Virus record (IMG/VR): IMGVR_UViG_3300017917_005108
Span: 1-64,000 of that record
DNA: 64,000 bases
Direction: 5' to 3' (one strand)
From: a virus
Part shown: positions 18,314 to 51,893 of the stretch, in pieces
How the letters are laid out: the number at the start of each line of letters is the position of its first letter
Position numbering within the stretch: the stretch's first letter is position 1
Position numbers and translations under genes: made by a program
Notes under the pieces: model-generated
Database searches by the model: none
What the model was told of the DNA's origin: nothing
What the model saw: only the letters and a program-made list of their open reading frames with translations

Positions 18314-18362
18314 AGAAATATTTACATGCTTTATAGTTGTTTACTAGCTGATAAATATAACT

Positions 18363-21873: not shown

Positions 21874-21923
21874 TAAACTATTTACATTGAAAATTACATC
21901 ATCAATATTATAATAAAGCATAT

Positions 21924-22571: not shown

Positions 22572-23326
22572 CTTTCGTACTTAAAATAGAGATAATTAAG
22601 ATAAGAATCAGGTAAAGGGTTATTTAAATCATACATTACTCTTGAATTCCACTTACCTGTAGTTACAGCTGTGCTGCACCAGTGTATACAATATCTTTCA
22701 TTTAAAAGATTAATTGAATCACTATAGTTATTCAAAAATTTAAATATTTCTTCCATACTATCATTACCAAAATATTTTTTATCTACAACATACGGTAATA
22801 AATTTTCTGATAATATTTGATTATAAAATATTTTCAATGGCTTTATATATTCATTATTATGTTCATTAATACATTTTTCAGTATTTTTTTTAAGCTTTAA
22901 AAGCATGTGGTAGTCTTTAGGTAATTTTATCGTATTAGATACAACTTTAAACTTATTATGTGGCTTAAGAACAATGTGCTTACTTTGAAAAAAATCACTA
23001 TTAAAATTCTTAATACATGTTGTATCAAAGTCTACATACCAGCCACCGTATTTAAATAATAATTCATATCTAAAAATATCAGAGAACCCTCCAATAGAGT
23101 TTAATGGACAATCACCATTGCCTTGATAATAAAAAACCTTATCTTTAGGTAAAATTTCATTTGCATCAGTTATGTTTAAGTTTTTATGCTTTAAATGATC
23201 AAAAGATTTTGAATTATATGTAAAAATATTAACTTTATGGTTATTGATTAGAAAGCTCTTTATATTTAAATTGTCAAATCTAGTGAGAGGTTTACCATCC
23301 CAGAAAAAATTAATATGGTTTTCCAT
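22568..23326 (-). CDS. GT32-like (DXD) glycosyltransferase
   Basis: FFWDG, DANEI, FSDIFRYELLFKYGGWYVDFD, IHW. Confidence 0.85.
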   Translation of the reverse strand: MENHINFFWDGKPLTRFDNLNIKSFLINNHKVNIFTYNSKSFDHLKHKNLNITDANEILPKDKVFYYQGNGDCPLNSIGGFSDIFRYELLFKYGGWYVDFDTTCIKNFNSDFFQSKHIVLKPHNKFKVVSNTIKLPKDYHMLLKLKKNTEKCINEHNNEYIKPLKIFYNQILSENLLPYVVDKKYFGNDSMEEIFKFLNNYSDSINLLNERYCIHWCSTAVTTGKWNSRVMYDLNNPLPDSYLNYLYFKYES

Positions 23327-24095
23327 TGTTTTTTCTGTGGTATTTATTTAAATTAGAATAAAATGTAGCAAGCCTGCTTTTTGAAAATTTAATAAATTCA
23401 TGAATATCTTTAGTAAAACAGTGACCTCCCCATCCAAATTTTTTATCCCTTCCAGGAACATCTAAGTGGGATGAGCCTATACGCTCATCTAATCCAAGCA
23501 TTTTAGTAAACTCTTTAAAAGTACTCCTTAATTTTAGCTTTTTATGTATTAAAAATAATTCATTAGCTAGCGTGACTTTTAAAGATAAAAATACATTTTC
23601 AGAGTATTTTATAAGTGAAGCTGTCTGTATGTCAGTGGTATGAACATTCTTAACTTTCCTAAGTCTTGATTTTAATATCTTGCAGACTGTTTTAGCAGCG
23701 GAAGACTGACCTCCGGCAATAATAAACTTTTGATTAATAAAGTCATGTATATTATTCCAATGTGAGAGATATTCAGGGCTATGAACCAATTTTAAGTGTT
23801 TAAACTGTTTTTCTGCATTTTTGTAGAAAATAGGTGACGCTGTAGATTTGCAACAAACCAATAATTCAGTAAACGTACTGTTTAATGCTTCTAAAATACT
23901 ATTTAATAGTTTAAAATTTTCATTTTTTGGTGTATCAACACAAACGAAGGCAATATCTATTTTTGTATTTTTAAACGTTTGAATAGTATTATTGTTATAT
24001 TTTGGATCAACTATATGAACAATGTCTTTTTTAAAAGCGGATGCAACAGCTTTACCGACATAGCCATAGCCAATTATTAAAACATTATACTTCAC
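23310..24095 (-). CDS. UDP-glucose/GDP-mannose 6-dehydrogenase family, short form
   Basis: GYGYVG, FVCVDTP, KST, SPEYL, KYSENVFL, DERIG, GWGGHCFTKD; C-terminal domain absent. Confidence 0.88.
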   Translation of the reverse strand: MKYNVLIIGYGYVGKAVASAFKKDIVHIVDPKYNNNTIQTFKNTKIDIAFVCVDTPKNENFKLLNSILEALNSTFTELLVCCKSTASPIFYKNAEKQFKHLKLVHSPEYLSHWNNIHDFINQKFIIAGGQSSAAKTVCKILKSRLRKVKNVHTTDIQTASLIKYSENVFLSLKVTLANELFLIHKKLKLRSTFKEFTKMLGLDERIGSSHLDVPGRDKKFGWGGHCFTKDIHEFIKFSKSRLATFYSNLNKYHRKNNGKPY

Positions 24096-28408: not shown

Positions 28409-30028
28409 CTAGTTTAAATATATAATAGTACTATCTAAAGGAGCCTTTTTAACTTCATCTTTTAGAATATTTAAAAGATTTTCCTGTATGTCATATATCT
28501 TCTCTAGACATCTATTAACGACAGCATTTTGAAATACTTCATTTTTACCTATAAAAAAGTCAATATCAGTTTCAAAATAAATAGATTCTCTTTCTTCTAC
28601 TGTTAAATATCTTGTAAATTTAAAAACTATATTATTTTTTTCATCTCTTTTAAATAAAAATTTTCCTATTATTTGATCTCTAAATCTCATATGATTTATT
28701 AAAAGTTTAGAAAGTGCTTTATTAAAGATCCAGCTTTGAACATACTCTAATTCATTAAATTTGATTTCATCATATGTATATACATCATAATTAGGAATAG
28801 TTAAAATATCATATAGGTTTACATTATCGTAAAATGAATTAAACATAGGCGTGTTTCCGTTTTTTGTATATACTATATTTCTATCATTTTGATTATCTTT
28901 AGTTGGAATTGTGGTAAAACCGTAAACTATTTGAGGTGTGGTGTAGTTAAAGAGGTAGAACAAATATTTACCTATTGTTTCTTGAGGAAGTGAGACAAAT
29001 TTTTTATATATATTTTTGTTGCTAGTTACATAAAATATATTGTCATCTGTTTGTGAGAAAAATAAATTAGTAAAAACCTCATCATCATTAGTAATAGAAG
29101 AAAGAGATACAACAGTTTTTGTACTGAAATTACTGTCGTATTTTAATAATAAACTATTATTACATAATATATACATATTTCCAAAATTATCATTTTTAAT
29201 TCTTATAGGGTATGCGCTTAATAAATCTCTTTGTAAGCCGTAAGTATATTTCCAATTTAAATTTTCATCATATTCTTTTACACATAAATTTCCGCTATCT
29301 AAGATGTAGATATTATTATCGTAGTAGCTTATACCTCTTGGATTCTTAAATTCATACTTATCTTTTATAGAACCATTACCGCCAATAGCTTTTTGAAAAA
29401 ATAACCTATTGGTTAAAATATTATCATCTGTGTAGAGACCGTTACCATCGTACTTGTAAAGTTTACTTGCACTTAAATCTAAGACTAAAATACTATTATT
29501 TGGGCCTTTACTAATGTCGTTAATATATCCGAAATTAATACCGGTTGGCTGCTCTGTGCTATAATCAGTAGTACTCAATACAACTCCTATAGTAGATTGA
29601 TTTATATTTGAATCTAATAGTATTAATTTTTGTCCTGTTGTAGCTAGAATATTATATTTTTGCGCTTCAGGGTTATTTGCACCGTAAATTAATGTAAGAT
29701 TATCAAGGTCAGGGAGGCCTACACTTGAAAGAGGTTGAAATTGTTGTGAAGATGCACCATAATACCACGTAAATTCATTATGCAATGAAGACACACCAGC
29801 AATCGCTGTTGAAGATAGAGGAATTAAATTGCTAGCAATTTTACTGTATTTGTAGAGATATAAAAAATTATCATATAAATGTTTTATTTTTAAATTAACT
29901 AAACCTGCAGTTACGGTATCGTTTGGCGCTATTTTTATTTTATCTCTATTAAAAGGTAGAGTTAAATTATAACTTACAAATCTATCGTATATTAATCCTG
30001 AATTGTTAAAGACTTCTTCTATATTCAT
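28409..30028 (-). CDS. Putative virion protein with NHL-type beta-propeller
   Basis: FKNPRGI...IYILDSGNLCVKEYD. Confidence 0.6.
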   Translation of the reverse strand: MNIEEVFNNSGLIYDRFVSYNLTLPFNRDKIKIAPNDTVTAGLVNLKIKHLYDNFLYLYKYSKIASNLIPLSSTAIAGVSSLHNEFTWYYGASSQQFQPLSSVGLPDLDNLTLIYGANNPEAQKYNILATTGQKLILLDSNINQSTIGVVLSTTDYSTEQPTGINFGYINDISKGPNNSILVLDLSASKLYKYDGNGLYTDDNILTNRLFFQKAIGGNGSIKDKYEFKNPRGISYYDNNIYILDSGNLCVKEYDENLNWKYTYGLQRDLLSAYPIRIKNDNFGNMYILCNNSLLLKYDSNFSTKTVVSLSSITNDDEVFTNLFFSQTDDNIFYVTSNKNIYKKFVSLPQETIGKYLFYLFNYTTPQIVYGFTTIPTKDNQNDRNIVYTKNGNTPMFNSFYDNVNLYDILTIPNYDVYTYDEIKFNELEYVQSWIFNKALSKLLINHMRFRDQIIGKFLFKRDEKNNIVFKFTRYLTVEERESIYFETDIDFFIGKNEVFQNAVVNRCLEKIYDIQENLLNILKDEVKKAPLDSTIIYLN

Positions 30029-31755
30029 TAATTACTCCATTTAATTTCATTTATTTTTATATAAGCAGGAACTGTTTTAGCTAAAATAGAATATATTCTT
30101 TTTTCTATTTCTAACTTTAATTCATCGTTTAATATACTGCTATTTTTAAGAACTATATTCATTAAGGTAGATTTATTACCGGGGATACTAAATTTAAAGT
30201 ATCTTTCAATTTCTTCTAAATAATTTCTCCTACCACAAGCAGTGTCAAATACAATATCTTGAATTTCTCCAGAATTAGCTTTAGCATGAAACGCAATATC
30301 AAAATAATTTAAAGGTTCACTATATAAATAAAAATTTTTCATTGTAATACCTGTTGTGTTAAAATTATTATCTTTTAAAAATTCAAACAACGGTAGTGAA
30401 TTAGTGTAAGGTGCTGTTCCTATAAAAAACGGTCTATCTATTAAATTAGAAAATTCATATTTTCTTGGCTTGAAAGTGTCATTAGCTACTATTTGATTAT
30501 CTATTAGAAAATAAGCTGTTCCTGTATATGTATCTACACGGAAACAGAAATTATGGTATCCAGGATCTAGAGTGGATAAATTATATACCAAATTTACATA
30601 AGCATAATCTAGATTATTAAGAGAATTTACAAGTTTTAATTTAAAATTAATACTTGATTTTGGATATAAATCCAAAATATATTCTCTTAAATAGCTAGTC
30701 TGTGTTAGTGGGATATTTACTGACGGTATGTAGTAAATTTTATAATCTTTAAATATCTCTAAATTATCATTCATTTTTAAAAACTGTGTATGATAAGATC
30801 CTGAAGAAGAAATGCTTTGTACTAATGCAGTTTTTACTATTGTATTATTTTCTAATTCATAGGTAAAGTCTATAGACGTGCATGATTTTGCGAAATTTAT
30901 AGTTGATGCAGATGCAATAAACACTAATGTGCTATCAAATTTCGAAACATTTGTATTATTATGTAAAATCCATATATTACCATCTAGATCAATATTGTAA
31001 TTGTTTAAGATTGTCTGAGATTGAAAAACTTCTGAAACATCAAAAAATGGAGAGGTTATGTTTTTCCATTTATAGATAGAATTGCCGTCAACAAAATATA
31101 TAGTACTTTTTACTCTTTTAGAATTGTTTTTTCCAGTTAAGTATAGTTTATCATCGTATAAATTAATCGTAGTTGCTCGTGAGAGAATAGTACCATAAAC
31201 TTTTTTCTCAACATCAGTATCAGCTATTACATCTTGTATGCTTCCTGTGTCTAATTCAATACGAAGTATTGATCTTCCTGGGTTAGTATTAACAAGAAAA
31301 TAAGCATATTTTTCATCGTAATCATAATCTAAAAGCTCTGTTAGAAGTGAATTATATACTGAATATACCTCTACATTTAGATTTGTGTATTTTATAAAAA
31401 TACCTGTATCATATAGTATAAAATAATCATTAAATCCTTCTTTTCTTATAACAGCAATTGCTGAAGCAGGTAATTCTACAGTATTTAAAATATCAAAGTT
31501 TAAATTGGTAATTACTAAAGCGCTTGCAGAATTTATAAATAGTGTAGGTGTTAGGTAGTTAATATTAAAAATTCCAAAACCGTCATTTGAATAATTTCCG
31601 ATTAACTGATAAGAAAATGGCTTATTCCAGTCATCCGCATACATGTCAAATACTAGAGTGAAGTTGTTTGAATATTGTATAGAAGAAAGATTGGTTGTTT
31701 TACTATATGTATATTTGTCAAAATATACTTCTTCAGTGTCATAGTAAACTGACAT
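30028..31755 (-). CDS. Putative virion protein, LamG-like halves flanking a propeller-like insert
   Basis: FTLVFDMY..DW; GYHNFCFRVD...FLIDN...FFIG...MKNFYLYSEPL. Confidence 0.55.
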   Translation of the reverse strand: MSVYYDTEEVYFDKYTYSKTTNLSSIQYSNNFTLVFDMYADDWNKPFSYQLIGNYSNDGFGIFNINYLTPTLFINSASALVITNLNFDILNTVELPASAIAVIRKEGFNDYFILYDTGIFIKYTNLNVEVYSVYNSLLTELLDYDYDEKYAYFLVNTNPGRSILRIELDTGSIQDVIADTDVEKKVYGTILSRATTINLYDDKLYLTGKNNSKRVKSTIYFVDGNSIYKWKNITSPFFDVSEVFQSQTILNNYNIDLDGNIWILHNNTNVSKFDSTLVFIASASTINFAKSCTSIDFTYELENNTIVKTALVQSISSSGSYHTQFLKMNDNLEIFKDYKIYYIPSVNIPLTQTSYLREYILDLYPKSSINFKLKLVNSLNNLDYAYVNLVYNLSTLDPGYHNFCFRVDTYTGTAYFLIDNQIVANDTFKPRKYEFSNLIDRPFFIGTAPYTNSLPLFEFLKDNNFNTTGITMKNFYLYSEPLNYFDIAFHAKANSGEIQDIVFDTACGRRNYLEEIERYFKFSIPGNKSTLMNIVLKNSSILNDELKLEIEKRIYSILAKTVPAYIKINEIKWSN

Positions 31756-31789: not shown

Positions 31790-32356
31790 TTATGAAATTT
31801 TGTTTATTTTCACATTAGCATAGATTTCTGTAGTAAAGTTACCTTCAACTCCAAATCCATTAGTGCTTTGGGTAGATTGACATCTTTGCTGTAATTCAAA
31901 CGTTTTACTAGAAGCAATAGTAAATCTACCTTGTATAATATTGTTTACAGTAACGTTTGAATAAGCGTAAATAGCTCCTCCTAGTAAAGTTGTAGATGTG
32001 TCTGTTATATTTTGCAGCCTTGCTTGCACTCTATTACAAGAATAGGCTGGTGCTACTGCAAAAAAATCATATGTACCTGGAGGCAAAGTAAACTGATTAC
32101 TAGCTAGTGAACATATATTGCCTGTATCTAATACTTTAGTATTAAGTGTTCTAGTTCTCCAATCACCGCTAGTAAATGACCCACCGGGGGTGTTTTGAGT
32201 TTTTTGATCCTGTAAAACTACTGTATAGTCAACTCTACCGGTTGAAACAGCAGAAGCTAATGTAGTTCTATACGTTACTACCCCAGTTGTTAGTGGAAAA
32301 TAGTCAAAACTAGCTGGCTGCTGTATAGGTAAATCTATAATTTTTACGTTTGCCAT
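31790..32356 (-). CDS. Small fiber/spike-like protein (C1q/TNF-like head)
   Basis: MANVKIIDLP N-terminus; WRTRTLNT...NQFTLPPGTYDF...FELQ. Confidence 0.55.
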   Translation of the reverse strand: MANVKIIDLPIQQPASFDYFPLTTGVVTYRTTLASAVSTGRVDYTVVLQDQKTQNTPGGSFTSGDWRTRTLNTKVLDTGNICSLASNQFTLPPGTYDFFAVAPAYSCNRVQARLQNITDTSTTLLGGAIYAYSNVTVNNIIQGRFTIASSKTFELQQRCQSTQSTNGFGVEGNFTTEIYANVKINKIS

Positions 32357-32366
32357 ATATTATTAT

Positions 32367-34232
32367 TTATGGTCCAGTTATTATATAGTCACCGCTATCT
32401 GCAATAATAGGATCACTTGCATCTGTTAATAGCTTATCTACTAAAGTAGGTGTAGGAGTGGGTGTAGGCGTAACAGTAGGTGTAGGTGTTGGTGTAGGTG
32501 AAGGACCAGGAATTGTTGGAGTAGGTGTAGGAGTTGGTGTGTTTGTAGGTGTAGGAGTAGGTGTAGGTGTGGGTGTGGGTGTAGGTGTTGGTTTTGGAGC
32601 AGTAAATCCATTAGTGTCTTTTTCTATTATATTAGTATTAAATAACTGTAACCCTTTTTGAACTAAACTACCTGTTAATGAGTTTAATAGGTTTATACTA
32701 AAATCTGGTCCTATATGATGATAGGCGTAATACGTGCCTTTTTCAAATACTAAACTTGAAGGTATGTCAAATACATCAACATAACCAAACAAATCATTAA
32801 TATCCTTTACCAAACAATCAAAAACTGAAGTAAATTCAATAGCATTAAAAGTAGATGCAGTCAATGCATTTATATAGGATACTTTTATAGGGTTATAATA
32901 TCTGTCTATCCATATTGGTTTAACTTTTGGGTCTAAACTACCAGAAAGCCAAGAGCATAGAAAATCACCAGATGTTTCTTCTAGTGTATTGCCAAAATAA
33001 CTATTTCTTGAATAGTTTCCTTTTTTCTTAAAAATTTTATCACTCTTAAGAGGATGATCACCTGGAATTGCTCCTGCCTCTATTAACCCTGAATCATTTA
33101 TATTAAGTTTTGTAAATGGATAAAATATTTGGGGTATGTGAAAATAAGTAACTTTATCTTTTTTAAGAATTATATTTGAAGTATAACTTTCATATCCAAC
33201 AGTTATATTATCATTTCCTAGTAATTGGTTAGATCCTGTAAACAGTTTTTTATAATCTCTTTGAACAATTCTTTGCTCATTAAAAAATGGGTTATTTCTA
33301 GATTGATAATTTTCAGGTGTATTAGAATTCTTTAAAGATAGTAAATTAATATAAATTTCATTGCCAGAAATAGTAAAATATTCATTATTAAGTAAAAAAT
33401 TATCAAATGCATCATTATAGCTTAAACTTTCATTTATTGGTAAAGAATTATTTTTAAAGTTTTTAAGATATGATACCCAGGGGTCTGAAATATCTGTAAA
33501 GTTAGGCCCATAATTTCTTTTAACACATCTAAAAATAGAATTGTTTGTAAAAGCAGCTTGAGTACCTGTAATGGGATCAACTAAAGTTAATTCATCTAAA
33601 TCAGGATTATAAGTTACATATTTTATAATATCATTTATATTTTTTTGCAATACTATAAAATTATCACCTCTATCATAGTTGTAGATAAAAATTTGAGGTG
33701 AATACTGTCCAAAATTATCTGCATCAATATCTTTACACATGCTTAAATTTCCTGTATAATCAAGTGTTAAAAATCTCTTTACACCGTCATTTTCATGAGC
33801 AATTTTACACAATGCATCAGTTAAAAATACAATTTCAAAAAAGTATCTGTTGTCAATTAAGTCACTTTTACCAGAAACTGCTACATTACAATTAAAAATG
33901 TTTGGTGATGGCTCTGCTGCAACCCAAAATTTAGAAAGCGGTGAAATAAAATCAATAGCGTTTACAGCAAGATAGGTAGAAAACCCCTCATCTGGTAATG
34001 GCTCTAATGGTTCTATCTCTAGAACATCAGATAAAAAATTAGTTTTAGAAAGATATAAATTCGAGTAGTTGTTTGTTGAAGTATCATTAGCATCTTTAAA
34101 AACACTTGCAAATGAAAAATTTATACTGTTTTCAGTATAAATGTTTTGTGTTTTTAAATTTAAAGTTTCGTCTAAATTATACTTGGCTGATAAGGGTATA
34201 AAATTAGTAGATGATAAGCCAAATACTTGCAT
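32367..34232 (-). CDS. Putative virion protein with C-terminal Pro-Thr stalk and terminal acidic peptide
   Basis: 621 aa; (PT)n tract then [19 protein letters not shown]. Confidence 0.65.
32445..32597 (-). repeat. (Pro-Thr)n coding tandem repeat
   Basis: Degenerate 6-bp GGTGTN/GGAGTN repeats on the + strand. Confidence 0.95.
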
Positions 34233-34240
34233 ATTATTAT

Positions 34241-36217
34241 TTAAGAAATAGTTCCATATACAACACCTGCCCCTATATTATTTACAGTAGCAGTATATCC
34301 GTTTAAATTAATTGCTTTGCCTGCAGCGCCACCTTGGCCTCCTCCATTTGAAGCTGATGCTCCATTAATACCTAAATTACCACCATTACCGCCAGGAGCA
34401 GCAGACGCACCAGCAGCGCCTCCTGTAAGATAACTGCCAGGGCTTGAAGCTTCTCCTACACCAGATGCGCAATCTCCTAGCGCCAACCCTTGACCAACAT
34501 TTATTCCAGCGCCACCACCTGAGCGACCACCTCTAATTGCTCCAAATATAATATTAGTTGATCTTCCTCCTCCTCCTGCACCTCCACCGCCACCTATAAT
34601 ACCTGAGTTATTAATTGTTAGATTATAGTTTAAGTTAATTGCATTTCCACCAGAATTGCCATTTAAAAACTCACATACGCCATTGCCACCCTTACCAGCC
34701 ACGACACCATTTGCAGGTGAATTGGTTCCATCAGATACAGCTGGTACTACCAATGTAATATTTGATCCAGCAGGCCAGCTACCGGTATCTAATGCTGCTG
34801 TTCCTGTTGAAGTGCTTCCTATATTTCCTATTACAGTAAATGAAATGTTTACTGGGTTATTGGATGAATCACCGGTTTGAGATTCATAAGATGATCTAAG
34901 ATTTACATTATAAGTAGTTGAGCTAGCGGAACCAATAGTTAGATTACTAGGTGTGTTAGTTGGAGTAGGCGTAGGTGTTGGAGTTGGGGTAGGTGTAGGA
35001 GTGGGAGTTGGTGTGGGGGTAACGCAAATTTGCATTACTGCTGGTAGCCCACCAAAAGGATTAGTAAATCCAGTGGCATTGTTGCAATAGTACACAGTAG
35101 CTCCGGAGCCTAAGTCATTACCAACGCCTAAGCTTGGAGCATTTCCAGAAAAATAAATACCCGATAAGCTATCACAACTACCAAACACAAGATCATCTAC
35201 TAGTGTTACACTACTTGGAATGGTAATATCTTTTAAGAGTTTGCAAACTGAAAATGCATTACCCAGAATAGTAGTTACACTGTTAGGTATATTGACGCTT
35301 GAAAGCCCATAAAGATTCCGGGCAAAACAATAATAATCAAGGGTTGTTACACTGTTTGGAATTGTATAAGCATCTTTTCTGCCAGCAGGGTAAGTCAGCA
35401 AAGTAGTTTGATTTTTGTCAAATAGTACTCCATTGATAGAGCTGTAATTAGGATTAGCAGGGTTTACATTGATGCTTGATAGTGAAGTACAGGATGAAAA
35501 GGTACGGCTGGCTATAGATGCTAGCCCGCTACCTAACTCTACAGATCCAGTAAGAGCAAAACAATACCTAAAAGAACTACTTCCAAAAGTGGTCACATTT
35601 TTAAGGCTAGGAATAGTAACTAGATAAGAACATGAGGTGAAAGCTTGTGAACCTATGTTAGTTACGTTAGAGCCACCCTCTACACTTATTAGACTGCCTT
35701 GATTATAAAACGCATTACTACCAATGCTGGTGACACCAGAGCCAATGACTATATTGGTAAGTGTTTTACTTGTATTGTAACTGTTTGATGTTAATGTGGT
35801 ATCAGAACTCTGTGAGGTAGTATTGTCACTATAAAAGAACACAGTATGTACGGGTGGTAGCGTGGGTGTAGGCGTAGATGTCGGAGTATTTGTTGGTGTA
35901 GGTGTTGGTGTAGGGGTAAATGTTGGAGTGGGAGTGGGAGAAGGTGTTGGTGTATTAGTTGGAGTAGGTGTAGGCGTAGGAGTACCTACTGGTGTAAAAT
36001 TAACTGGTATTGTGTTTAAATCAAATACATAATCTTTATTTGGTTCTAATGAAGTTAAAGTATTAGTAACGCTATTTGGGGTAAAAGTAATTAAACCTGT
36101 TCCAGCAGTATTAGGAGTAATAATTCTATTAATTTTATTTTTATCAGGAAAATTAGGTAAGAAGCATCCTTCTGCTTCTGTGTATTTAGTAATTATTTTA
36201 TTTTTGTTTATATTCAT
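34241..36217 (-). CDS. Modular adhesin: N-module / PT / BspA-type LRR / PT / gp38-like Gly-rich head
   Basis: [16 protein letters not shown] repeats; C-terminal [13 protein letters not shown]...GGAAGKAI. Confidence 0.8.
34949..35021 (-). repeat. (Pro-Thr)n coding repeat
   Basis: TPTPTPTP tract. Confidence 0.9.
35856..35985 (-). repeat. (Pro-Thr)n coding repeat
   Basis: [14 protein letters not shown] tract. Confidence 0.9.
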
Positions 36218-39200
36218 GGTATATACTCATATGTTACTACATTTCTAGATACGTCACCGCCACCTATTATATAGACTTTTTCTGAGCTGTCCTTTGTTAT
36301 TCCCTCTCCGCCGTAACCACCTTGATTTATTGAGGAGGAAACAAAAGATAAAACAGGCTGATTACCATTTGGGTAAACTGGATAGGTAATGACAATTCCG
36401 CTTGCAAGTGTTGTACTCCCTACAGCAATTAATCTTTTTACCCCGCCATTATTAGTGAAAATAGCATTCGATATACTATATGTAAAATTCAATGGAACGT
36501 TGGCCCAGGTAGCCCCGTTATCATTAGAGCATTTAAAAAACTGTGAGGTTGAGGGAAATTTAGCTAATCCCATAGCAACCCAATTGTTACTTCCATCTGT
36601 TGTAACTACTCTAAAATCAAAATTATCTGTATTAGGATCAGGATCTGGCCAGTCGTTCCATTGTAATTTTGACCAAGAGAGACCATTATCTGTAGATCTA
36701 TAATAAGCTTTGCTTAATCCTACAGCAACCCATACCCCATTACCGTAGTCTATAGATCTTATATCGGTGTTGACAGTACCTACTGATGGTTGAGAGATGG
36801 TAGTCCATGTGGCTCCGTTATCTGTCGATCTATATAATCCTCCATTTTGAACCCATGAAGCTATCCATACCCCATTACCATATTTTGCTACAGATTGATT
36901 GAATACCGTACTTTCAAGTTTTTTACTCCAGTTTAATCCATCAGTAGAGTATAGATATCTTGTATAAGGGCCTGGTGTATTTAAATCATCAAAGCTGCCG
37001 CTCATTATCCACAAACCATTACCATAAGCTATATCAAAAGGCTGAGTATTAATTGGAAGATTAGTCATCTTAGTCCAATTAACACCATCTGTTGATGTTA
37101 GATATTCATTATTGCCTGGGGGAGGTGTATTAAAATTAATAGCTGTGAATCTATTGTTACCATAAGCTACTTTATAAACTGCGCCATTAAAAGGTGCAGG
37201 TAACTTATTGCTATATAAAGTAAATCCAAGATCTCCTGGTATTTGTGTAGACGTTGGGGTAGGTGAAGGTGTTGGAGTAGGAGTAGGTGTAGGGGTAGCA
37301 GTAGGCGTTGGAGTGGGTGTGTTAGTAGGGGCAGGTGTAGGTGATGGTGTAGGAGTAGGTGTAGGTGCAAAAGGATCGTAATTAATTATATAAGGAATAA
37401 CTGATGAGTTAATCAAATAATATCTGCCAGCAGAAAGGTATTGCATAGTGCTAGGTCCACCAGGCTTATAAATTAAGAATGTAGTTCCGTTTAAGTCTGT
37501 CCCAGTAATTCCTATGATGTTACTGTTACCATAATATCCTGGCATGAAAATGTCAGTCTGACTATTGTTGTAAACTATTTGCCAGTATTTGTTGACTTCT
37601 ATGCCCAGAGGGTTAAGAGTGGGAGTAGGCGTAGGTGTAGGAGTAGGGGTAGGAGTGGGTGTAGGAGTGGGTGTAGGAGTAGGGCCTTGACGAGGTCTAG
37701 TATATAAATTGTATATTTTTAATATAGAAGATCCAGTATTTGCAAAAGTAAATGAATATAAGCTTTCTTGTGTAGTACTAATGGTTGCATTAGTTGTTAT
37801 ATAAACAGGATTATTATCTATAGAAGTTTCAGAAAAATTATAGGCAGATAGATAATTTTGAGCATATATAGGCGAATAGTTATTAAAGAAAGAATGATTA
37901 GGGAAGGGCGGTGAAATTAAATCTACATCATAGAATACATTAAACGAGGTAACATTTGTAGCTACTGTTATGTTATAAGACTCAGTAGATTTTACAAATA
38001 TATCTAAGCCATTTTTATCTATATAGTATGTAGATTCTTTAGGCAACACTTGATATGAAATTACATCTGTAGAAAGTAATTTAAAGTTTGTAACATAGTT
38101 AGCAGAATCAGCTTCTGCTACAATCATATTTTTATAGATATCATTGCTCAATCCTATTTTGTTTAGAGCGTTTATATTTTCTACATCATAATAAGATAGA
38201 GGTACGGAAGTAAAAGCAAGGTTAAAAATGTTAAAAACTGAATTTCCATTTATAACAGTTACAGAAGGTGTATAAAGTGTTAGGTTTTCATTTTGAGGAT
38301 AATATTCATGCTTTGGATATACAAACTTTGGATTACCTGGCTGATATCCAAAAGTATTAGAAGCATTAGGGTCTATGTTTGTATAATTAACTATAATTTC
38401 TTTTTCTACATCTAATATTTCAGAACCATCTCCAAAATCATATATAACTTTTAAAGTAGTATAAAAAGAATTATCTATAGCTGAGGGTATAAAAGTTAAA
38501 GTATATGGACCTTTTAAAATTCCTAAATTTATATTTTCTATCGTATTTTGTATTTGATATCCCCATGGAAAAAACAACCCACCATATGTAGATAAAGTAT
38601 ATGCAGATGTTTGACCAAATAAAAATGTTGATGTATAATAGTCGTTTAATACTTCTGCCTGTGAGAGCGCGGTGTTATAAATTTTTACACTTTGCACATT
38701 ACCCTTAAACCCCTCTCCGTTTGTTGGATCATTAGTAGGATCAGCTCTTCCTATTAAAAACGGCGCAGTGTTGGTTGCTGATAATGTTGTTGCAGCTGCA
38801 GAAAAATCTAAATCAAAACCACTAATATTTAAAACTAAATTAGTTGCAACATGTGATTGACTAGGACATAAAAACTTTTTAGATCCGTTTACATAGCACT
38901 GTAATATTTTGCTGGACTGATCTACTACTAATGCAACATGGTTATAACCATTTATAATACAGTTATCAATAGTAGTATGATAGATTGCACTAAGTGGACT
39001 CGGACTAAGCCCTGATCCAATACCAACATAAACATTTTTATTAGCAGTTTGTATTATATATCCAGGGCTAAAAAACCAATGTCCTTTATTTACAACTCTT
39101 TGCAAACTACTTCTTCCTGATGAAAAAATAGCAGTAATAGTAAAGCTGTTTTGTTCAAAATTAAATCTTTTATCATTATCAGCTGATAATACGGAAAGAC

Positions 39201-39510
39201 TACTGTAGAGAGTGTTATTTAAAGAATATACTCCAGTATTACTTGTTCTGTTTAATTTTAAATCATTTGTTTGAGTGGTAGAGGTATCATTAGCTGATAC
39301 CGTACTATATCTTGATTCAGGGTCTTCTGTATCTATTTTTAATACTTGAGGTGTTATGCTTGCAGAAAGAACTGTAAAAACACCGCCATCTACGTTATTT
39401 GGATATGTAAAGGCTGTTCCGTATACAGGATCTAAGAAAAACCAGTGATTTAAGTAATTTGGCTTTCCAGATATTTGATAACTGGACAGTATTACATTAA
39501 GAAAATTCAC
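36214..39510 (-). CDS. Large virion protein: LamG, PKD-like, two PT tracts, BNR/Asp-box propeller
   Basis: YNHVALV...YVNG...FKGNVQSVKIYNTALS; YDFGDG; STDGxxW / STDNGATW repeats. Confidence 0.8.
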   Translation of the reverse strand: MNFLNVILSSYQISGKPNYLNHWFFLDPVYGTAFTYPNNVDGGVFTVLSASITPQVLKIDTEDPESRYSTVSANDTSTTQTNDLKLNRTSNTGVYSLNNTLYSSLSVLSADNDKRFNFEQNSFTITAIFSSGRSSLQRVVNKGHWFFSPGYIIQTANKNVYVGIGSGLSPSPLSAIYHTTIDNCIINGYNHVALVVDQSSKILQCYVNGSKKFLCPSQSHVATNLVLNISGFDLDFSAAATTLSATNTAPFLIGRADPTNDPTNGEGFKGNVQSVKIYNTALSQAEVLNDYYTSTFLFGQTSAYTLSTYGGLFFPWGYQIQNTIENINLGILKGPYTLTFIPSAIDNSFYTTLKVIYDFGDGSEILDVEKEIIVNYTNIDPNASNTFGYQPGNPKFVYPKHEYYPQNENLTLYTPSVTVINGNSVFNIFNLAFTSVPLSYYDVENINALNKIGLSNDIYKNMIVAEADSANYVTNFKLLSTDVISYQVLPKESTYYIDKNGLDIFVKSTESYNITVATNVTSFNVFYDVDLISPPFPNHSFFNNYSPIYAQNYLSAYNFSETSIDNNPVYITTNATISTTQESLYSFTFANTGSSILKIYNLYTRPRQGPTPTPTPTPTPTPTPTPTPTPTLNPLGIEVNKYWQIVYNNSQTDIFMPGYYGNSNIIGITGTDLNGTTFLIYKPGGPSTMQYLSAGRYYLINSSVIPYIINYDPFAPTPTPTPSPTPAPTNTPTPTPTATPTPTPTPTPSPTPTSTQIPGDLGFTLYSNKLPAPFNGAVYKVAYGNNRFTAINFNTPPPGNNEYLTSTDGVNWTKMTNLPINTQPFDIAYGNGLWIMSGSFDDLNTPGPYTRYLYSTDGLNWSKKLESTVFNQSVAKYGNGVWIASWVQNGGLYRSTDNGATWTTISQPSVGTVNTDIRSIDYGNGVWVAVGLSKAYYRSTDNGLSWSKLQWNDWPDPDPNTDNFDFRVVTTDGSNNWVAMGLAKFPSTSQFFKCSNDNGATWANVPLNFTYSISNAIFTNNGGVKRLIAVGSTTLASGIVITYPVYPNGNQPVLSFVSSSINQGGYGGEGITKDSSEKVYIIGGGDVSRNVVTYEYIP
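37254..37684 (-). repeat. Two (Pro-Thr)n tracts flanking an ~80-aa module
   Basis: PT tracts at ~37254-37368 and ~37617-37684. Confidence 0.9.
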
Positions 39511-39562
39511 TTAATTATTTAATTTTATATTATATTATCCAATATATAAATACATCTTTATG

Positions 39563-41125
39563 TTACTGTAACAATGCAAAGCTTTCTAAAGCTCCAGCTT
39601 GAGCTGCTGACCAGCTACCAGATATCTGACTAAATGCACCTCTTGTTGTTGTATCACCCAGTCCTAATTGACCGTATTCATTATATCCTGTTCCTAGTAA
39701 TACAGTACTATTAGCTGATAATCCTATTGTATGACCTAATCCAGCTCCTACAAATTGAGACCAGGTACCTGTCATTGATGTAAATGTTGTATAATTTGTA
39801 AAGGAACTAAACCCTAGCTGGCCTAAATTATTAGCTCCAGTACCGAATAGTTTATAATAACTACCGTTTGCAGATATACCTATAGTGAATGCACTGCCAG
39901 TGCTTACAAGAGTTGAAGATGAAATTACATGTACAACAGTAAATGTTGTTCTATCTGTAGTATCTCCTACACCCAACTGACCCCTATTATTACTGCCAGT
40001 CCCATACCACCTACAATTTGCAAAAGGTGTACCAGAGGATAGAGCAAGAGTATGGTTATAGCCAGGTGATATACTATCCCAATTTCCAGGTAGTCTATTA
40101 AACCCATTTCTACTAATTCTATCTCCTAACCCGAGTTGACCTGATAAGTTATTTCCTGTGGTAAACCATACACTATTAGGTGTAGCTGATTGTGCAAATA
40201 CATAATTATCACCTGCAAGTACTGTATTCCAACTACCTGTTAGCTGAACAAAGGTATTAGATGTTGCGGGTATATTAGCTTGCAAACTAGTCAAAGTACC
40301 AGCTGCAAACATAGTATTTGTACCAGCAGAAATAGCTACTGTAAATGCACCTGCTGGAGCTATATAATCCCAGTTTCCATTTACAATAGTATAAGTTGAT
40401 TTGTTAGTGTTGTCACCTACACCTAACTGACCTTCTGTATTTCTACCCGCAGCATACCACGTAGTGGTGCCTGTACTTCTAGCAAACGTATATAGATATG
40501 TATTGCTCTTTGTAGATTTAAATATGTCAAAGTTTCCTGGTACATTACCAAATGAATTCATTTGACTACCTGTACCGGATTCACCGTAAATATTAGATCC
40601 TGCTCTTCTAATTATATAAGTTGGTACTGTAGGTGTAGGCGTGGGTGTATTAGAAGGTGTGGGTGAAGGTGTTGGTGTGTTGGTAGGTGTAGGTGTGGGT
40701 GTATTAGTAGGTGTATTAGTTGGGGTAGGCGTAGGTGTATTGGTAGGTGTTGGTGAAGGCGTAATAGTGGGTGTATTGGTAGGTGTCGGTGTAGGTGTAA
40801 TTGTAGGCGTCGGTGTAGGAGTATTTGTAGTAAAGATTGTAGGTGTGGGAGTCGGAGAAGGAGTTGGTGTGGGAGTTGGAGTTGGTGTGGGACAAATAAT
40901 AGTATAGGGAACTGTATTAGAAATAAACAAATAGTCTGTATTTGGAAAAACGTGATTTAAGGTATTTAAAGAACTTAATGGGTTGTATGTTAATAGATAA
41001 TTTCCAGTTGAACCTATTCCTATTATCTTATTGATATTCAAACGACTAGGAAAAGCTGATAGGGGTATAGGTGTAGATGTTGTACACCCTAGATTAACAA
41101 ATTCATATATGTTAGAAATTGTCAT
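39563..41125 (-). CDS. Modular protein: N-module / long PT stalk / RCC1-BLIP-II propeller
   Basis: Repeated GxNxxGQLGxGD motif. Confidence 0.85.
40628..40892 (-). repeat. Longest (Pro-Thr)n tract (~88 codons)
   Basis: [13 protein letters not shown]...TNTPTPTP. Confidence 0.95.
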
Positions 41126-41139: not shown

Positions 41140-44100
41140 TTATAACACCTGAACAGAGCCAGGTGCAAATATCCCTTCATAATTAGTTTGTGTATTAAAC
41201 TTAAAGTATGTAAATTTTTGACCTAGATATATTGGATCAAAGTTTACAGTAGCAACAAAAGCATTATTAATATAGATATCCATTGTTAATGGTAAATCAG
41301 TTGGATACTTGTTATCATAGGAAAGAATATCGCTTTGATACAATGAAGCAAATGAAACACCATAATAGCCTACAACGCCTCCGGAGATCGGTATCTGTAT
41401 AGAGGAATCAAATGTAGTAGGCTCTACAGGAGTACTATAATCATTATTAAAGTAGCCATTAATATTGAAGTTTTTAATTTTTAATGTAGCAGCTGTTAGA
41501 CCAGAGCTATATGATAAACAAGGTCTAACTGCGTTAGGCGTTAAATCACCAAAATTATAATCAAGATAGGTAGAAAAATCTCTAGCACTTAATTCTTTTT
41601 GTTGAACTATAACTCTTTTACCTAAATCACAAAATCTAATTCTTATTCTTCTATATACAGGCAAATCTGTACCAGTTATTTGTTGATAAATTGAAATTGG
41701 ATTGTCAAAGCTAGATAAAGAGTTAGTTCTTGTTATAACTTGATAGTTATCATAAAATCCGCCTCTTAATGTTATAGAGTTTGATACGCTTGTAGGTAAT
41801 CCAGTTACACCATAACTTGAAGTGCCAAAATTACCAGTTGAGTCAAAGCCTATACCTAAGATACCACTATAAAGACCGTTATAATTTATAAATGCTGCGC
41901 CACCTGTTGAATTAGTACTCAAGTAATTAGCGTTTGTATAATTCAACCCATATCCTGGTGCGCCACCACTTACTATAGGTGTGTAACCTATTAAAGATAC
42001 ACAGAATCCTTCTCCTGCTTGTGTTGTTGAACCGTAGAAAGCATAATCAAAAGTAATTACTATATCTTTTCTTGTATCAAAACCGCTTGTGCTATAAATT
42101 AGAGTGCTTTTTGCACTTACAGGTAACGTATAAAAGCCTGTTGGGTAAATTGTCATGGTTGTAGTGGCTGAACCAGAATAATTACCGTTCACCGAAACAG
42201 CACTTACTGTATAAGAACCTGTTTCAATTGGAGTGACAAAACTACCTGAAGAAAGATAATAGGTTAACAACCCTACACCGGGATAAGAAGGTGAAAACGC
42301 TGACACGCTCTTTGGACTACCTGTATAAACAAAGCTGGTATTTGTAAATTGTATAAAATTAGAAATGTCTAATCTTGTTAGTGTAATATCAAATAAAGCT
42401 GTTGCAGGAGCAAAAACTGTAGTGGATAAAGAGCTTACTAAAACTGTTATTGTACCTGTACCAGATAAAGCAGAAACTGTTGGACTTAAAGTCTTACCAG
42501 GACCACTTAGAACTGTATAAAATGTTTGTAATCTGTTACCCAGGTATGATGCAGTTGCTGATAAGTCTAGGGTTTGTGTGTATTGAAGTGTTGCAGGCAG
42601 AGAAGGCTGAACTATAGATATTTTAGGAACAGGCTGGCTTACAGTATTGTTGGGTTCATCAGGGTATAAGACGACTCCCTGAGTAGACATGTGTGTATAC
42701 TGCTGATTGGAATAACTGGATCTGCCAGTTTTGTTGTTTGTATAATCATAAATGTAAGCGCCACCTGCGCACAGTGAGTAAAATAATGCATCTATAGATT
42801 CTGAATCTAGTAAATTGTTGTTTACATATGCTTCATAGGAAATTTTTGTAGAAGTAAGAACATTTATTGATGTTAAATTATTGTACTCGCAATGAATATA
42901 CTCTAACCCGGTGAGTGGTGTTAAATCTAATGTTGAAATGTTATTGTCTTGAATTTGAAGGTTGGTTATGTTTTTGCTGTAGTTTAAATTAATTGTAGAA
43001 AGATAATTTGTAAATGCTTGAAAATATATAAGAGACGAAAAAGCAGATAAATTGATACTGCTTAGCTGATTAGTATTAGCTGTAAACTCTGTTATACCGG
43101 AACATTTATGCAAAACGGTGAAATTGTTAATTTCTCTTAAACGGTTATTACTAATATTAACTGATGAAAGATTTACAGAGCCAGTAAAATCAAAAGACGT
43201 CAGTCCATTGTTATTGAGGCTTAGATAGGCTAGATTAGGGAGATTAGACAACGTAATGCTGTTAGCGTCTCCGCCTCCAAATACCAGATAGTTTAATACA
43301 GGGTAATTGGAAAAGTTAATAGATGAGATGTTATGATAATAAACATTTATTCGTTCCATTGTGCCTGGTAATGTTGGCAGCGATGTTAAGTTAGTATAAT
43401 AAAGAAAAATGCTTGATAAAACAGTACAATTTGTAAAATCAATAGAGTTTATAGGTCCATAATAATATATTTGATTTAAATTGTAGCAGTTAGAAAAATC
43501 TACAAATTTATTTGAAGATTGTATGCTGAGAAAATAGAAATAATTTAACTGTGGGTTGTTTTTTATATTAATGTTTTTTAATGGAGAGCCATCCATATAA
43601 ATGGTTTTTAAAACAGGAGCACCAGTCAGAGTGAATGCGCTCAACGAATTGTTGTATCTAGTAAAGAAAAAACTATCAAATGTTATAGAAGTTAAACTAG
43701 CAAAATAGTTGTTTTCAGTTTTAACTGCAGAAAGGTGCACATTTCCTGTAAAAACTAAAGTATCTATACTGCTTAGACCTTTAGTTAAATCTATTTCAGG
43801 GGCAGAAGTTCTGCAGTTAAAATATTTTAATGCACTCAATCCAGCTAGCTGCACAGATGATAGACTGTATGAATTAAGTGTTAATGATATTAAATTGTTT
43901 AGTGTATTGTAATTAAAGGAAGTGATAAAACGTGAGTTAGTAAACGCAATATTTTCTAAATTGTTAGGTATTGCAGGTAGAATTAAAGATCTTAGATTAG
44001 ATGTGGCTCCTAAGTCTAAAAATTTGAGGGCTGACAGACTTGATATATCTAATGAAGACAGGGATTGGCTATTAAAGAGGTTTAAAGCTGTTAGAGAGTC

Positions 44101-45246
44101 TGCTAAATTATCTAAATTTAGTGAAGTCAGGGAACAATTTAATGCTGATAAATTTCTAAGCTTAAAAGAAGATGGGTAGTTATTAAAATTTATTTCAGTT
44201 ATAGGATTACAAGATACATCAAGTGTTTCAAGTGCAGATAATGCTGATAGACCTATAATAATGTTTAAAGAACTTAAAGAACCAACAGGAGAAGAAAAAT
44301 AATTATAGCCGCCTACATCTAAATACTGTAATGCTGTTAGACCTGTTACATTAAGTGATGTCAGAGGATTGGTATTCAGATACAAGTATTGTAGAGCAGG
44401 TAAATTTATTAGAACAGGATCAGTAATTAAGTTACCATTTGTTAATCCAAGATTATAGTAAGTAATTGGATCGTACCCACGGCGATCACCGAGGTGTAAA
44501 TAACTCAAAGTAGGTATGTTTTGTAATACAAAAGAAGTTAGCTGGTTGTTATTACAGAAAAGATATCGCAAACTGCTCAAAGGCCCAGTAAAATTAAATG
44601 AGCTTAATCTACTAGTGTAATTGGAATAGATGTTATGAGGCCCTAGATTTAAAGATGCAATACCACTAAGAGCTCTGGTATCAGATAGTGTAAAGTCTAA
44701 TACTTTTAATGGTGTTCTACCTATATCTAATGAAAATAAGCTACAATTATTAAATTTAAATGCACTAAGATAAGAGCTGTCTAGATTAAGGTAAGATAAT
44801 TTAGTACCACTTAAATTAACATACTGATATGATCCATTGCGTATGTCTAGACTAAAGAGGTTTTGTAGTCCTATAACTCTGATGCCTGATATACCGCCTG
44901 TCCATGTGTAGAAATTATATAAAGAAGCATTTTCCCTTAGATCTGCTTCAAACAATGTATTGTTCCCTGCTCCATGAAATGTCACCAGGTTAGGAAATAA
45001 TCTGAAATCTAAATATGTAAGAGACTGCTGAAATGGTAGTTCATAAAGTCCGCTGTATAAATCTGTTACTAAAGCCAATCTAGGTGAAGTGTTTTCAATG
45101 TAAAGTGTATTGTTACCGACGTTTAAGCCTTCTTTTTGCACATAATAATCAGTGCCAGAGAGTAAAGGAGGGTATGGTACAAAAAAAGCAGATATACTAC
45201 TTGTTTGATTGTTATTGCTTGCGGTTGCTGCTCTTACCCATGCCAT
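41140..45246 (-). CDS. Giant LRR protein with MBG-like and L-type lectin-like domains
   Basis: LxxLxLxxNxLTSL repeats; FVYTGSPK...GSYTVSAV...NYSGSAT; GEGFCV...LGIGFD. Confidence 0.8.
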   Translation of the reverse strand: MAWVRAATASNNNQTSSISAFFVPYPPLLSGTDYYVQKEGLNVGNNTLYIENTSPRLALVTDLYSGLYELPFQQSLTYLDFRLFPNLVTFHGAGNNTLFEADLRENASLYNFYTWTGGISGIRVIGLQNLFSLDIRNGSYQYVNLSGTKLSYLNLDSSYLSAFKFNNCSLFSLDIGRTPLKVLDFTLSDTRALSGIASLNLGPHNIYSNYTSRLSSFNFTGPLSSLRYLFCNNNQLTSFVLQNIPTLSYLHLGDRRGYDPITYYNLGLTNGNLITDPVLINLPALQYLYLNTNPLTSLNVTGLTALQYLDVGGYNYFSSPVGSLSSLNIIIGLSALSALETLDVSCNPITEINFNNYPSSFKLRNLSALNCSLTSLNLDNLADSLTALNLFNSQSLSSLDISSLSALKFLDLGATSNLRSLILPAIPNNLENIAFTNSRFITSFNYNTLNNLISLTLNSYSLSSVQLAGLSALKYFNCRTSAPEIDLTKGLSSIDTLVFTGNVHLSAVKTENNYFASLTSITFDSFFFTRYNNSLSAFTLTGAPVLKTIYMDGSPLKNINIKNNPQLNYFYFLSIQSSNKFVDFSNCYNLNQIYYYGPINSIDFTNCTVLSSIFLYYTNLTSLPTLPGTMERINVYYHNISSINFSNYPVLNYLVFGGGDANSITLSNLPNLAYLSLNNNGLTSFDFTGSVNLSSVNISNNRLREINNFTVLHKCSGITEFTANTNQLSSINLSAFSSLIYFQAFTNYLSTINLNYSKNITNLQIQDNNISTLDLTPLTGLEYIHCEYNNLTSINVLTSTKISYEAYVNNNLLDSESIDALFYSLCAGGAYIYDYTNNKTGRSSYSNQQYTHMSTQGVVLYPDEPNNTVSQPVPKISIVQPSLPATLQYTQTLDLSATASYLGNRLQTFYTVLSGPGKTLSPTVSALSGTGTITVLVSSLSTTVFAPATALFDITLTRLDISNFIQFTNTSFVYTGSPKSVSAFSPSYPGVGLLTYYLSSGSFVTPIETGSYTVSAVSVNGNYSGSATTTMTIYPTGFYTLPVSAKSTLIYSTSGFDTRKDIVITFDYAFYGSTTQAGEGFCVSLIGYTPIVSGGAPGYGLNYTNANYLSTNSTGGAAFINYNGLYSGILGIGFDSTGNFGTSSYGVTGLPTSVSNSITLRGGFYDNYQVITRTNSLSSFDNPISIYQQITGTDLPVYRRIRIRFCDLGKRVIVQQKELSARDFSTYLDYNFGDLTPNAVRPCLSYSSGLTAATLKIKNFNINGYFNNDYSTPVEPTTFDSSIQIPISGGVVGYYGVSFASLYQSDILSYDNKYPTDLPLTMDIYINNAFVATVNFDPIYLGQKFTYFKFNTQTNYEGIFAPGSVQVL

Positions 45247-51400: not shown

Positions 51401-51893
51401 AGTCTCCAGCTGCTCCAGAAGCATAAAGATTTAATGTATATCCTTCTGCACTTAAAGCTCTATAGGACTGCCAACTATTTTGACGTTGTATTGTGAGAGG
51501 CTCTATAATTCTACTAGCTGGTACGTCATATATAAAACGTTTAAAATCTTTGAACCCTAATTTATCTGCAACAAAGTCGTAAATTGCAATGGTTGGTTGA
51601 TAACTAGAATCGTATGCATTACCATAGCTGTCAAATATAACAAGCTTCGGTTTATAAAAACCGGGGAATTTATAATGATGAGTAGCTGTTAAATCGTTTG
51701 AGTAAGTTCCATCACCAAAATGCCATTCAATTTTTTTATTACTAATAACTGTAGATCCGGTTAATAATGGAGAAGAAGTAAAATCAGGAATAAAAGTTAT
51801 AGGTGTTATATCAAGAGAATATGAAGAAAGGGTATTATTTCCTGAGTAATCTCTAGTATAAAAATAGAGATATGTGTAGTTTAAAGATTCCAT
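48420..51893 (-). CDS. Baseplate-associated protein with PKD domain and beta-propeller
   Basis: IEWHFGDG...HHYKFPGFY; DxxNxVW repeats; directly after gp6-like gene. Confidence 0.7.
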   Translation of the reverse strand: MESLNYTYLYFYTRDYSGNNTLSSYSLDITPITFIPDFTSSPLLTGSTVISNKKIEWHFGDGTYSNDLTATHHYKFPGFYKPKLVIFDSYGNAYDSSYQPTIAIYDFVADKLGFKDFKRFIYDVPASRIIEPLTIQRQNSWQSYRALSAEGYTLNLYASGAAGDYIDYNSFIRDKWSHLRSLSRLYEVQKIGDFDEFVIVDKVITKDTKIYANIVNNNIQQCQENDTGSRFAGTTGYAEFYYVDDRTKNYTTREPPILIFATFDNAKFKDAYSMVTSIQDYVGYPPYGFQQLDPACLPIIKVRHNSAGRLSITSNGIDGEGALSATNFNIPEISWQYTEIPFVIRMKDFENYTTKTYPPLSSSTIETLAQNVTSYDLAISLVKQNNDLTRTCISAVSFYSDFSVDIPRSIGGFYKGYFIPHISSENLLLTAGMTVVDPVNFPKDSLVGWVSMPQYFKVKRIFKTRNFNYCDGTMEEFLSAYVSDYDTPGSVESYSFQVAPSGAGFGEDYRTWVADGQADKIYKIDIYGGILSAFNLSSYPFSGYNSTYYVDLRSTELSSAAPASIVMDGNSDVWFTLFDAVSSIKIDRYTGQAKSVAVPMYKNLVYALSSDYNLAPLSGFAGENTLLPASIDTDTQNNIWVAYTHPISNFLFKFDDTGNFIKVIPFPSLISPVEICVDRNNYVWLTTLNMNYPVSPSVSLTGKNDFVYKFDKDGNLLTGYPLTGFRLAGNITVDGAQNAYVVNDRETIIKLDANNPQKVTSFPGGSGVNTTNYIGSIGGIACDTANYLWVINNFENKLYYVDTTNESMSSIAGVDSITLEFPPDSTSNPVSAFQERIFQAYGDWIGSRWINKYMVPFNVTRYLSGESALFNVYPSTGKYNVTKINEDFDAGNFYKDLRYQEVLFNKKMFFDNFLSTIVGSISAQPYELGKVVYEKTANFVSNNSDIDKCNLDKLLSFCDELSLQFEEYNYPFPPQLRRLVDLLSIKHKILWGDRNTFNRNFDKKGYINSSKYGINLGNQINVLSGTIISGKSIVALELFSDLYTIVNTSNIKGYNLGDILPLSSYTYDWGWGLVAPKSLTGINIKNYYSFYQFNDITENSFYNNILNWNDPINLLSPTLSSYKDWSKNNGIMQNILSYELTKGLKLFTNTVDIVYNN

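Follow-up and report, generated by a model that had tools for sequence, protein, structure and literature searches.

Three adjacent genes of an uncultured T4-like phage, here called A, B and C, encode proteins in which one constant domain of ~77 amino acids (aa), the module, stands beside Pro-Thr-rich (PT) tracts and is combined with different putative binding heads. The genes lie in the window, which is the first 64 kb of the 162.5-kb IMG/VR record IMGVR_UViG_3300017917_005108 (estimated to be 77% complete). Judged from sequence, this modular, PT-jointed and shuffled architecture is very probably real. The reading favoured here, to which a probability of roughly 0.55 is given, takes the three proteins as accessory adhesins built like beads on a string, with the constant module serving for docking or pairing.

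A constant domain joined to different heads

Pairwise BLASTP aligned the modules of A and C at 44% identity over 52 aa (E 5e-14), those of A and B at E 3e-5, and those of B and C at E 6e-6. The PT tracts were left out of every module profile. A control profile hidden Markov model (HMM), built from 60 modules all taken from outside the window, picked out A (5e-23), C (9e-22) and B (9.5e-7) among the 646 open reading frames (ORFs) of the 162-kb genome, the next ORF scoring 0.011, while an HMM of the three window modules found no fourth copy in the genome. The initial annotation had placed a shared module beside PT tracts in three adjacent genes and proposed a profile search as the check on its homology; the translations locate the peptides where it had put them, and the independent profile bears out the homology.

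A search of 1.84 billion representative proteins with the three-module profile returned 42 matches at E ≤ 1e-3; seven reached E ≤ 1e-10. Local iteration left ~38 consistent members with the same ~77-aa boundaries; three matches were dropped, and one, P0045, consisted of fn3 repeats. With ~40 clusters among the 1.84 billion representatives, the family is rare. A metagenome scan recovered one 1.2-kb contig only, and a search for related loci with the C module alone, or with P0008, as query gave no match. The module starts at residue 1–10 in ~35 of 41 family proteins, is present as two tandem copies in 20, and is followed in most by a PT or Ser-rich linker and then by unrelated domains. The attached domains were RCC1 (P0025, P0016, P0041), FGE-sulfatase/C-lectin-like (P0012, P0016, P0041), right-handed beta-helix (P0019), BNR-like propellers (P0028, P0031), gp38-like (P0046, P0048, P0049) and LamG-like (locus L011), with cupredoxin-like and LRR_5 heads also found across the family and several further domains lacking a Pfam match. 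The survey of attached domains therefore agrees with the earlier view of one common module carrying different heads.

Some members carry no head. P0008, P0020, P0027, P0033, P0042 and the ORF at L024:477-875 are built from one or two modules and a Ser-rich linker, and they close with a conserved acidic/hydrophobic peptide at the C-terminus. At its start this peptide resembles the tail of the 621-aa protein of the window (gene E, Table 1), and it may serve for docking. A second lineage, of 160–180-kb phages, encodes a giant tandem-module protein with FGE-like, RCC1 and BNR-like heads (L021:276-5171, L022:5078-11168, L023:8167-13072); in these phages a gene with a more diverged module directly precedes the giant protein, among proteins of 1100–2200 aa.

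With a 28-row alignment, AlphaFold2 predicted the single module as a small beta-rich domain without helices of four or more residues (predicted local distance difference test, pLDDT, 92.8; predicted template-modelling score, pTM, 0.82). The natural tandem-module protein P0044 was predicted to form one rigid unit (pLDDT 96.3, pTM 0.89). No family matching the module was found in Pfam or PHROGs. With Foldseek at E ≤ 0.001, the single module matched nothing in PDB or BFVD, and the tandem model nothing in PDB; VIA-align, run exhaustively on the tandem model, reached a best Z of 4.7 (HPr, RCK), within the tool's stated noise range, and the ESM Atlas offered only unnamed clusters with scores ≤0.90 for the module. 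Domains of the fn3 and immunoglobulin (Ig)-like type are seven-stranded beta-sandwiches. The iterated module HMM matched the fn3 repeats of P0045, a weak and local resemblance to which hhalign assigned only 42% probability over 41 columns; there was no Ig or fn3 Pfam match on the module, and no Ig or fn3 structure above Z 4.7 in VIA-align. Known anchor domains of receptor-binding proteins (RBPs), namely T4 gp10-like and P22- or T7-type N-terminal adaptors, likewise had no Pfam, PHROG or fold match on the module, which may nevertheless be their analogue in function. On these predictions the module appears to be an undescribed domain, with a fold that has no recognisable solved relative. For annotation it represents a new small domain family without relatives in Pfam, PHROG or PDB, yet with a high-confidence predicted fold.

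The copy in B is only 20–25% identical to those in A and C, as might be expected if the similarity had arisen by chance or as a low-complexity artefact of the adjoining PT tracts. This explanation was rejected and is given next to no credence, since the tracts were excluded from the profiles, the independent HMM recovered all three copies with the scores given above, the 42 database matches keep a constant 77-aa boundary, and the fold is confidently predicted.

Proteins A and C are made up solely of module, linkers and heads. In B the module is tethered between two PT stalks, as had been noticed from the sequence, and the protein has a composite N-terminal part: residues 1–45 and 301–480 match a conserved short protein of the relatives (215–263 aa, termed B-short), residues 46–300 are a window-specific insert with a Laminin_G_3 (LamG-like) match at aa 239–287, and all that follows residue 480, PT-module-PT-BNR included, is added relative to B-short. 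By this comparison, B of the window reads as a chimera.

The heads proved to be of the kinds named in the initial annotation, the propeller of B at sub-threshold Pfam scores. In A, the BspA-type leucine-rich repeat (LRR) head scored 114.7 bits against LRR_5 (PF13306; gathering cut-off 27.7) and matched LRR surface proteins in PDB (best 4gt6 at 3.9e-38), while aa 460–655 scored 27.1 bits against GP38 (PF05268; cut-off 25) and also matched the tail-fibre PHROGs phrog_11439 and phrog_2056. The head of C reached 50 bits for RCC1 (gathering cut-off 21.7) and 27.2 bits for RCC1_2. For the head of B, BNR scored 16.7 bits (0.0065; cut-off 27) and Sortilin-Vps10 28 bits (1.3e-6; cut-off 33), and repeated Asp-box-like motifs were visible in its translation.

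Exchange at Pro-Thr joints among related phages

Related phage contigs were gathered with conserved neighbour genes as anchors. Common to all relatives was a backbone consisting of a D-like large protein, a variable stretch, one protein of 1100–1240 aa, homologues of the gene at 28409–30028, and two Mtd_N fibre genes. Module/PT cassettes fill the variable stretch in three cases only: the window, genome G001 (neighbour genes 59–68% identical) and locus L011 of genome G003 (55%). In locus L010 of G002 (58%) D is followed directly by the large protein with nothing between, and L012–L016 (44–46%) have other genes in the variable stretch. Whole-record searches found no module in G002 (the record covering 42% of the genome), G004 or the 91%-complete G005, which indicates that the cassettes are accessory. 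The number of modules was three in the window, two each in G001 and G003, three each in L021–L023 and at least two in L024; never was there a single one.

The order of the domains is permuted between the window and G001. The arrangement module-PT-LRR_5-PT-gp38 of the window has as its counterpart LRR_5-PT-module-PT-gp38 (683 aa) in G001, and module-PT-RCC1 has RCC1-PT-module-PT, the gp38 parts being 63% identical and the LRR and RCC1 parts ~40% each. L011 encodes a 1132-aa gp38-PT-RCC1-PT-module-PT-gp38 protein together with a module-PT-LamG-like protein. In P0005, whose module is 90% identical to that of C, an extra PT-bounded domain is inserted between module and RCC1. P0031 (1345 aa) has a module 99% identical to that of the RCC1 gene of G001, with BNR-like propellers on both sides, and the identity between the two starts and stops inside PT tracts. 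It had been suggested from the window sequence that heads might be swapped by recombination in PT-coding DNA and that breakpoints should be looked for there. Heads and module are indeed swapped, inserted and reordered at PT tracts between related phages (G001, L011, P0005 and P0031), and at the protein level the segment shared by P0031 and G001 has both its breakpoints inside PT tracts, as the proposed check required.

In the six PT tracts of the window, Pro and Thr are each encoded by a mixture of codons, and exact matches shared by two tracts reach 11–22 nt at most. Long DNA homology between the tracts was rejected for this reason, and the joints thus offer in-frame microhomology or short homology rather than long repeats. 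The PT tracts, at 49–58% GC, also explain a local rise in GC at 34–38 kb of this AT-rich phage (~25–33% GC).

Taken together, A, B and C are best described as flexible strings of independently folding domains, connected by Pro-Thr linkers of 20–90 residues. The ~77-residue beta-rich domain is the only constant bead and the others are interchangeable ligand-binding folds, and PT-coding DNA marks the places where beads are swapped, inserted or reordered between related phages. Host range is set by RBPs, and modular exchange among these is usually inferred from rigid trimeric fibres. The construction here differs: Pro-Thr linkers join monomer-type binding folds to a single constant domain that has not been described before. 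The joints are seen directly by comparison, with a 99%-identical module amid unrelated heads, breakpoints in PT, and an order permuted at 59–68% neighbour identity.

Two further observations were made in G001. In its B-short homologue (L019:8924-9881) a 29-aa PT tail forms the C-terminus and carries no further domain; between this gene and the next structural gene lies a tRNA-Gln (CTG) on the opposite strand. An in-frame TAA at L019:7620-7622, within a PT tract, separates RCC1-PT-module-PT from a PT-cupredoxin-like-PT-unknown ORF in the same frame; a recent nonsense mutation or a sequencing error could explain it, as could a true gene boundary inside the linker.

Possible docking, pairing or binding by the module

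Under the favoured reading, the module would be an assembly element: it would attach the string to the virion, bind a second module, or do both. Its flexible linkers would let it function at the N-terminus, in the interior of a protein or close to the C-terminus. The conserved N-terminal part of B probably anchors this protein in the virion, so that B would present its own tethered module, and the heads would bind host-surface ligands, widening or tuning adsorption. An assembly role is suggested by the constant-anchor/variable-head logic of RBPs together with the strong N-terminal bias of the module, by the fact that A and C hold nothing else able to attach them, and by the close pair C/P0047, in which the module is conserved somewhat above the head (83% vs 72% identity). 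Pairing between modules is hinted at by the rigid prediction of the P0044 tandem and by the presence of at least two modules in each module-bearing genome. For docking or pairing as the specific function of the module, the odds are close to even, leaning slightly to the negative side.

Several results weigh against this reading. Between the window and G001 the modules are 17–28% identical, below the orthologous gp38 (63%) and RCC1 (~40%) heads. A domain that docks to a conserved site would not be expected to diverge so fast, barring co-evolution of module and partner or an exchange of modules. The five headless proteins, with their two modules, Ser-rich linker and C-terminal peptide, fit equally well with the modules as the working end. 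B-short, which is the scaffold candidate, is absent from the module-bearing L011 and present in the module-less L012–L016. When single modules were scored against profiles of the first and second positions of the tandem, no complementary classes emerged, nearly all being second-position-like and B ambiguous. No partner of the module emerged from these comparisons, and A, B and C are putative virion proteins.

The fast divergence and the headless members would also be accommodated if the module were itself ligand-binding, in the manner of a lectin or carbohydrate-binding module (CBM), or a spacer bead. Attachment to the virion would then fall to the N-terminal part of B, to a head, to a terminal peptide, for which the conserved C-terminal peptide of the headless members would be a candidate as the true anchor, or to no fixed anchor at all. 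The tolerance of the module for any position and its weak local fn3-like resemblance point the same way, fn3-like repeats often being accessory adhesion or spacer domains on phages. However, the module is the sole element common to every family member, all else varying, and it shows a strong preference for the very N-terminus. If it were not the anchor, nothing else in A and C could attach them, and searches with the module gave neither a Pfam hit to a CBM or lectin nor a structural match to one (best Z 4.7). A binding or spacer role is consequently considered unlikely, though not far-fetched.

The initial annotation had envisaged a cellulosome-like scaffold. Dockerin is a mainly helical, ~70-aa duplicated Ca-binding F-hand segment, and cohesin, which binds it, is a ~140-aa nine-stranded jelly-roll. 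Like cohesin-dockerin systems and PT-linked glycoside hydrolases, the proteins described here have beads on Pro-Thr linkers and a small constant module combined with many functional domains, and among PDB sequences the linker regions matched just one, the PT linker of a solved glycosidase (8zvk). Unlike them, they gave no dockerin or cohesin match in the sequence and fold searches, a multi-receptor scaffold was not found, and the context is that of a phage tail. Membership in the dockerin family (Dockerin_1) was rejected, since Pfam gave no hit with the limit raised to E 5 and the predicted module is beta-rich rather than helical. Cohesin, of which the module has half the size, had no Pfam match and did not appear among the VIA-align and Foldseek rows, whose silence does not rule it out. 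Of the original proposal, the shared domain is genuine and an association of modules is hinted at by the tandem prediction (pTM 0.89) and the module counts, but neither sequence nor predicted fold brought up a match of the module to dockerin or cohesin, so that the term 'cellulosome-like' describes an analogy and not membership.

In its strict form, the model has modules on separate proteins binding one another among A, B and C, a baseplate-fixed B that scaffolds A and C, and glycosylated PT stalks. This version, a sub-case of docking or pairing, is improbable. G001 and L011 bear modules, yet no structural protein carrying one; the three modules do not pair off, and no dockerin or cohesin signature or fold was recognised. 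The tandem modules predicted as a rigid pair, which would favour it, are two covalently joined copies with a short linker. The genes for GT31-like, GT8 and GT32-like glycosyltransferases (GTs) nearby would also suit it, but GT8 is found as well in G002, which has no cassette in the 42% of the genome covered. Still in keeping with it are the at least two modules per genome and the joining, in B, of a conserved structural N-terminal part to a tethered diverged module.

It might also be that A, B and C are not virion parts but soluble products made during infection or set free at lysis, for example coating host or debris surfaces, blocking superinfection, or serving as decoys. Flexibly linked heads of monomeric type do not look like rigid trimeric fibres, and relatives dispense with the cassettes. 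The genes are nevertheless co-oriented and tightly packed in a baseplate/tail-fibre operon, with a 4-base overlap between A and B; B extends a protein of the conserved structural cluster, the gp38-like head is a known type of fibre-tip adhesin, and the translated N-termini show no evident signal peptide, all of which makes soluble products very improbable.

The functionally closest systems to the favoured docking adhesins are phages with branched or multiple RBPs that share an N-terminal anchor (PMC8262889, PMC13579863), such as the Klebsiella phage dual RBPs and the tailspike sets of CBA120 and G7C. Both they and the present phage have several adjacent genes with a common attachment element and differing specificity domains that are exchanged between phages; theirs are rigid homotrimeric spikes with a gp10-like or other known anchor in a fixed N-terminal position, whereas here an unrelated 77-aa constant domain, long PT joints, monomer-type heads and a freely permuted order are found. 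The T-even gp38 adhesin (PF05268) is resembled by the C-terminal head of A, with a Pfam score above the cut-off and matches to tail-fibre PHROGs. Unlike gp38, this head follows an LRR domain from which a PT linker separates it, has no gp37-binding N-terminal part, and is reordered with RCC1 and the module in relatives. The Ig-like and fn3 decoration domains of the T4 Hoc type are small beta domains with weak, broad adhesion that are mobile between structural genes. The module is likewise a small beta domain, but without a Pfam Ig/fn3 or structural match, the similarity being the 41-column local one given above. The literature search found no paper on PT-linked phage adhesins or fibres, on phage dockerin-like systems, or on the module domain. 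Modular receptor-binding architecture is known; building it around a new domain family is new.

If the module is a docking unit, it would provide a natural plug-and-play attachment point for studying how adsorption diversifies in environmental phages. More speculatively, and with rather low plausibility, it might be a self-pairing 'phage dockerin' of new fold, copies of which on separate polypeptides bind one another or a site on the baseplate and so assemble a changeable, multi-headed adhesin bouquet non-covalently, with mucin-like, phage-glycosylated PT stalks that double as in-frame recombination joints for reshuffling the receptor-binding heads.

Locus, neighbouring genes and sugar-handling genes

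Genes A, B and C form a single co-oriented block, tightly packed with the baseplate and tail-fibre operon. They sit in a hypervariable stretch between a gp6-like baseplate wedge gene on one side and Mtd_N/S74 tail-fibre genes on the other (Table 1), and the start of gene A shares 4 bases with the stop of gene B.

Table 1. Positions in the window of genes A, B and C, their parts, and flanking genes.
Feature	Position	Strand	Content or evidence
Gene A, 658 aa	34241..36217	-	Module, PT, LRR_5, PT, gp38-like head
A module (aa 1-78)	35984..36217	-	
A PT tract 1 (aa 79-119)	35861..35983	-	Tract scan
A BspA-type LRR_5 head	35021..35860	-	Pfam 3.3e-33
A PT tract 2 (aa 400-424)	34946..35020	-	Tract scan
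A gp38-like Gly-rich adhesin head, including stop codon	34241..34945	-	Pfam GP38 4.4e-6
Gene B, 1098 aa, GTG start	36214..39510	-	609-aa N-terminal part, PT, module, PT, BNR-like propeller
B aa 1-480	38071..39510	-	Conserved B-short parts and insert
B PT tract 1 (aa 610-631)	37618..37683	-	Tract scan
B module (aa 632-713)	37372..37617	-	Diverged copy between two PT tracts
B PT tract 2 (aa 714-755)	37246..37371	-	Tract scan
B BNR/Sortilin-like propeller head (aa 756-1098), including stop codon	36214..37245	-	
Gene C, 520 aa	39563..41125	-	Module, long PT linker, RCC1 propeller head
C module (aa 1-78)	40892..41125	-	
C PT linker (aa 79-169)	40619..40891	-	Tract scan
C RCC1-like beta-propeller head, including stop codon	39563..40618	-	Pfam RCC1 4.5e-13, WD40_RLD 2e-38
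Neighbour gene E, 621 aa, without module	32367..34232	-	Ends in PT tract (aa 548-596; 32445-32591) and 25-aa acidic tail
gp6-like baseplate wedge gene	51893-53755		phrog_219, 1e-38; ~25% identity to cyanomyovirus gp6
Tail-fibre genes with Mtd_N and S74-chaperone domains	26073-28377		

Gene E is the front half of a protein that relatives encode as a single gene. It and the 575-aa protein at 30028-31755 correspond to one gene of 1100–1240 aa in eight of eight distinct relatives and are split only in the window, where the gap between the halves holds a small tail-fibre-like gene (188 aa, 31790-32356, phrog_24210) and the front half has acquired its PT tract and acidic tail. Upstream of C, a 1368-aa protein (41140-45246) has LRR, MBG and EndoS-LRR matches and no PT tract; the part of it conserved across all relatives is C-terminal, at ~aa 1039–1272.

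Next to the fibre genes, at 9851-24095 of the window, Pfam searches identified a cluster of sugar genes with Galactosyl_T/Fringe-like (GT31-like), GT8 and Gly_transf_sug (GT32-like) members, together with a PIG-L deacetylase, a UDP-sugar dehydrogenase-like protein, a glutamine amidotransferase-domain protein and PhyH. The three glycosyltransferase-family genes, at 9.8–23.3 kb of the window, lie 10–25 kb from A, B and C, and their proximity may allow for glycosylation of the PT linkers. Homologues of GT8 were found in G001, G002 and G003 and not in G004 or G005, and co-occurrence of glycosyltransferases with PT cassettes was rejected as a clean signal, the GT8 pattern tracking relatedness as much as cassettes. 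For the GT31-like gene only G002 gave a match, a weak one, which leaves this gene almost confined to the window.

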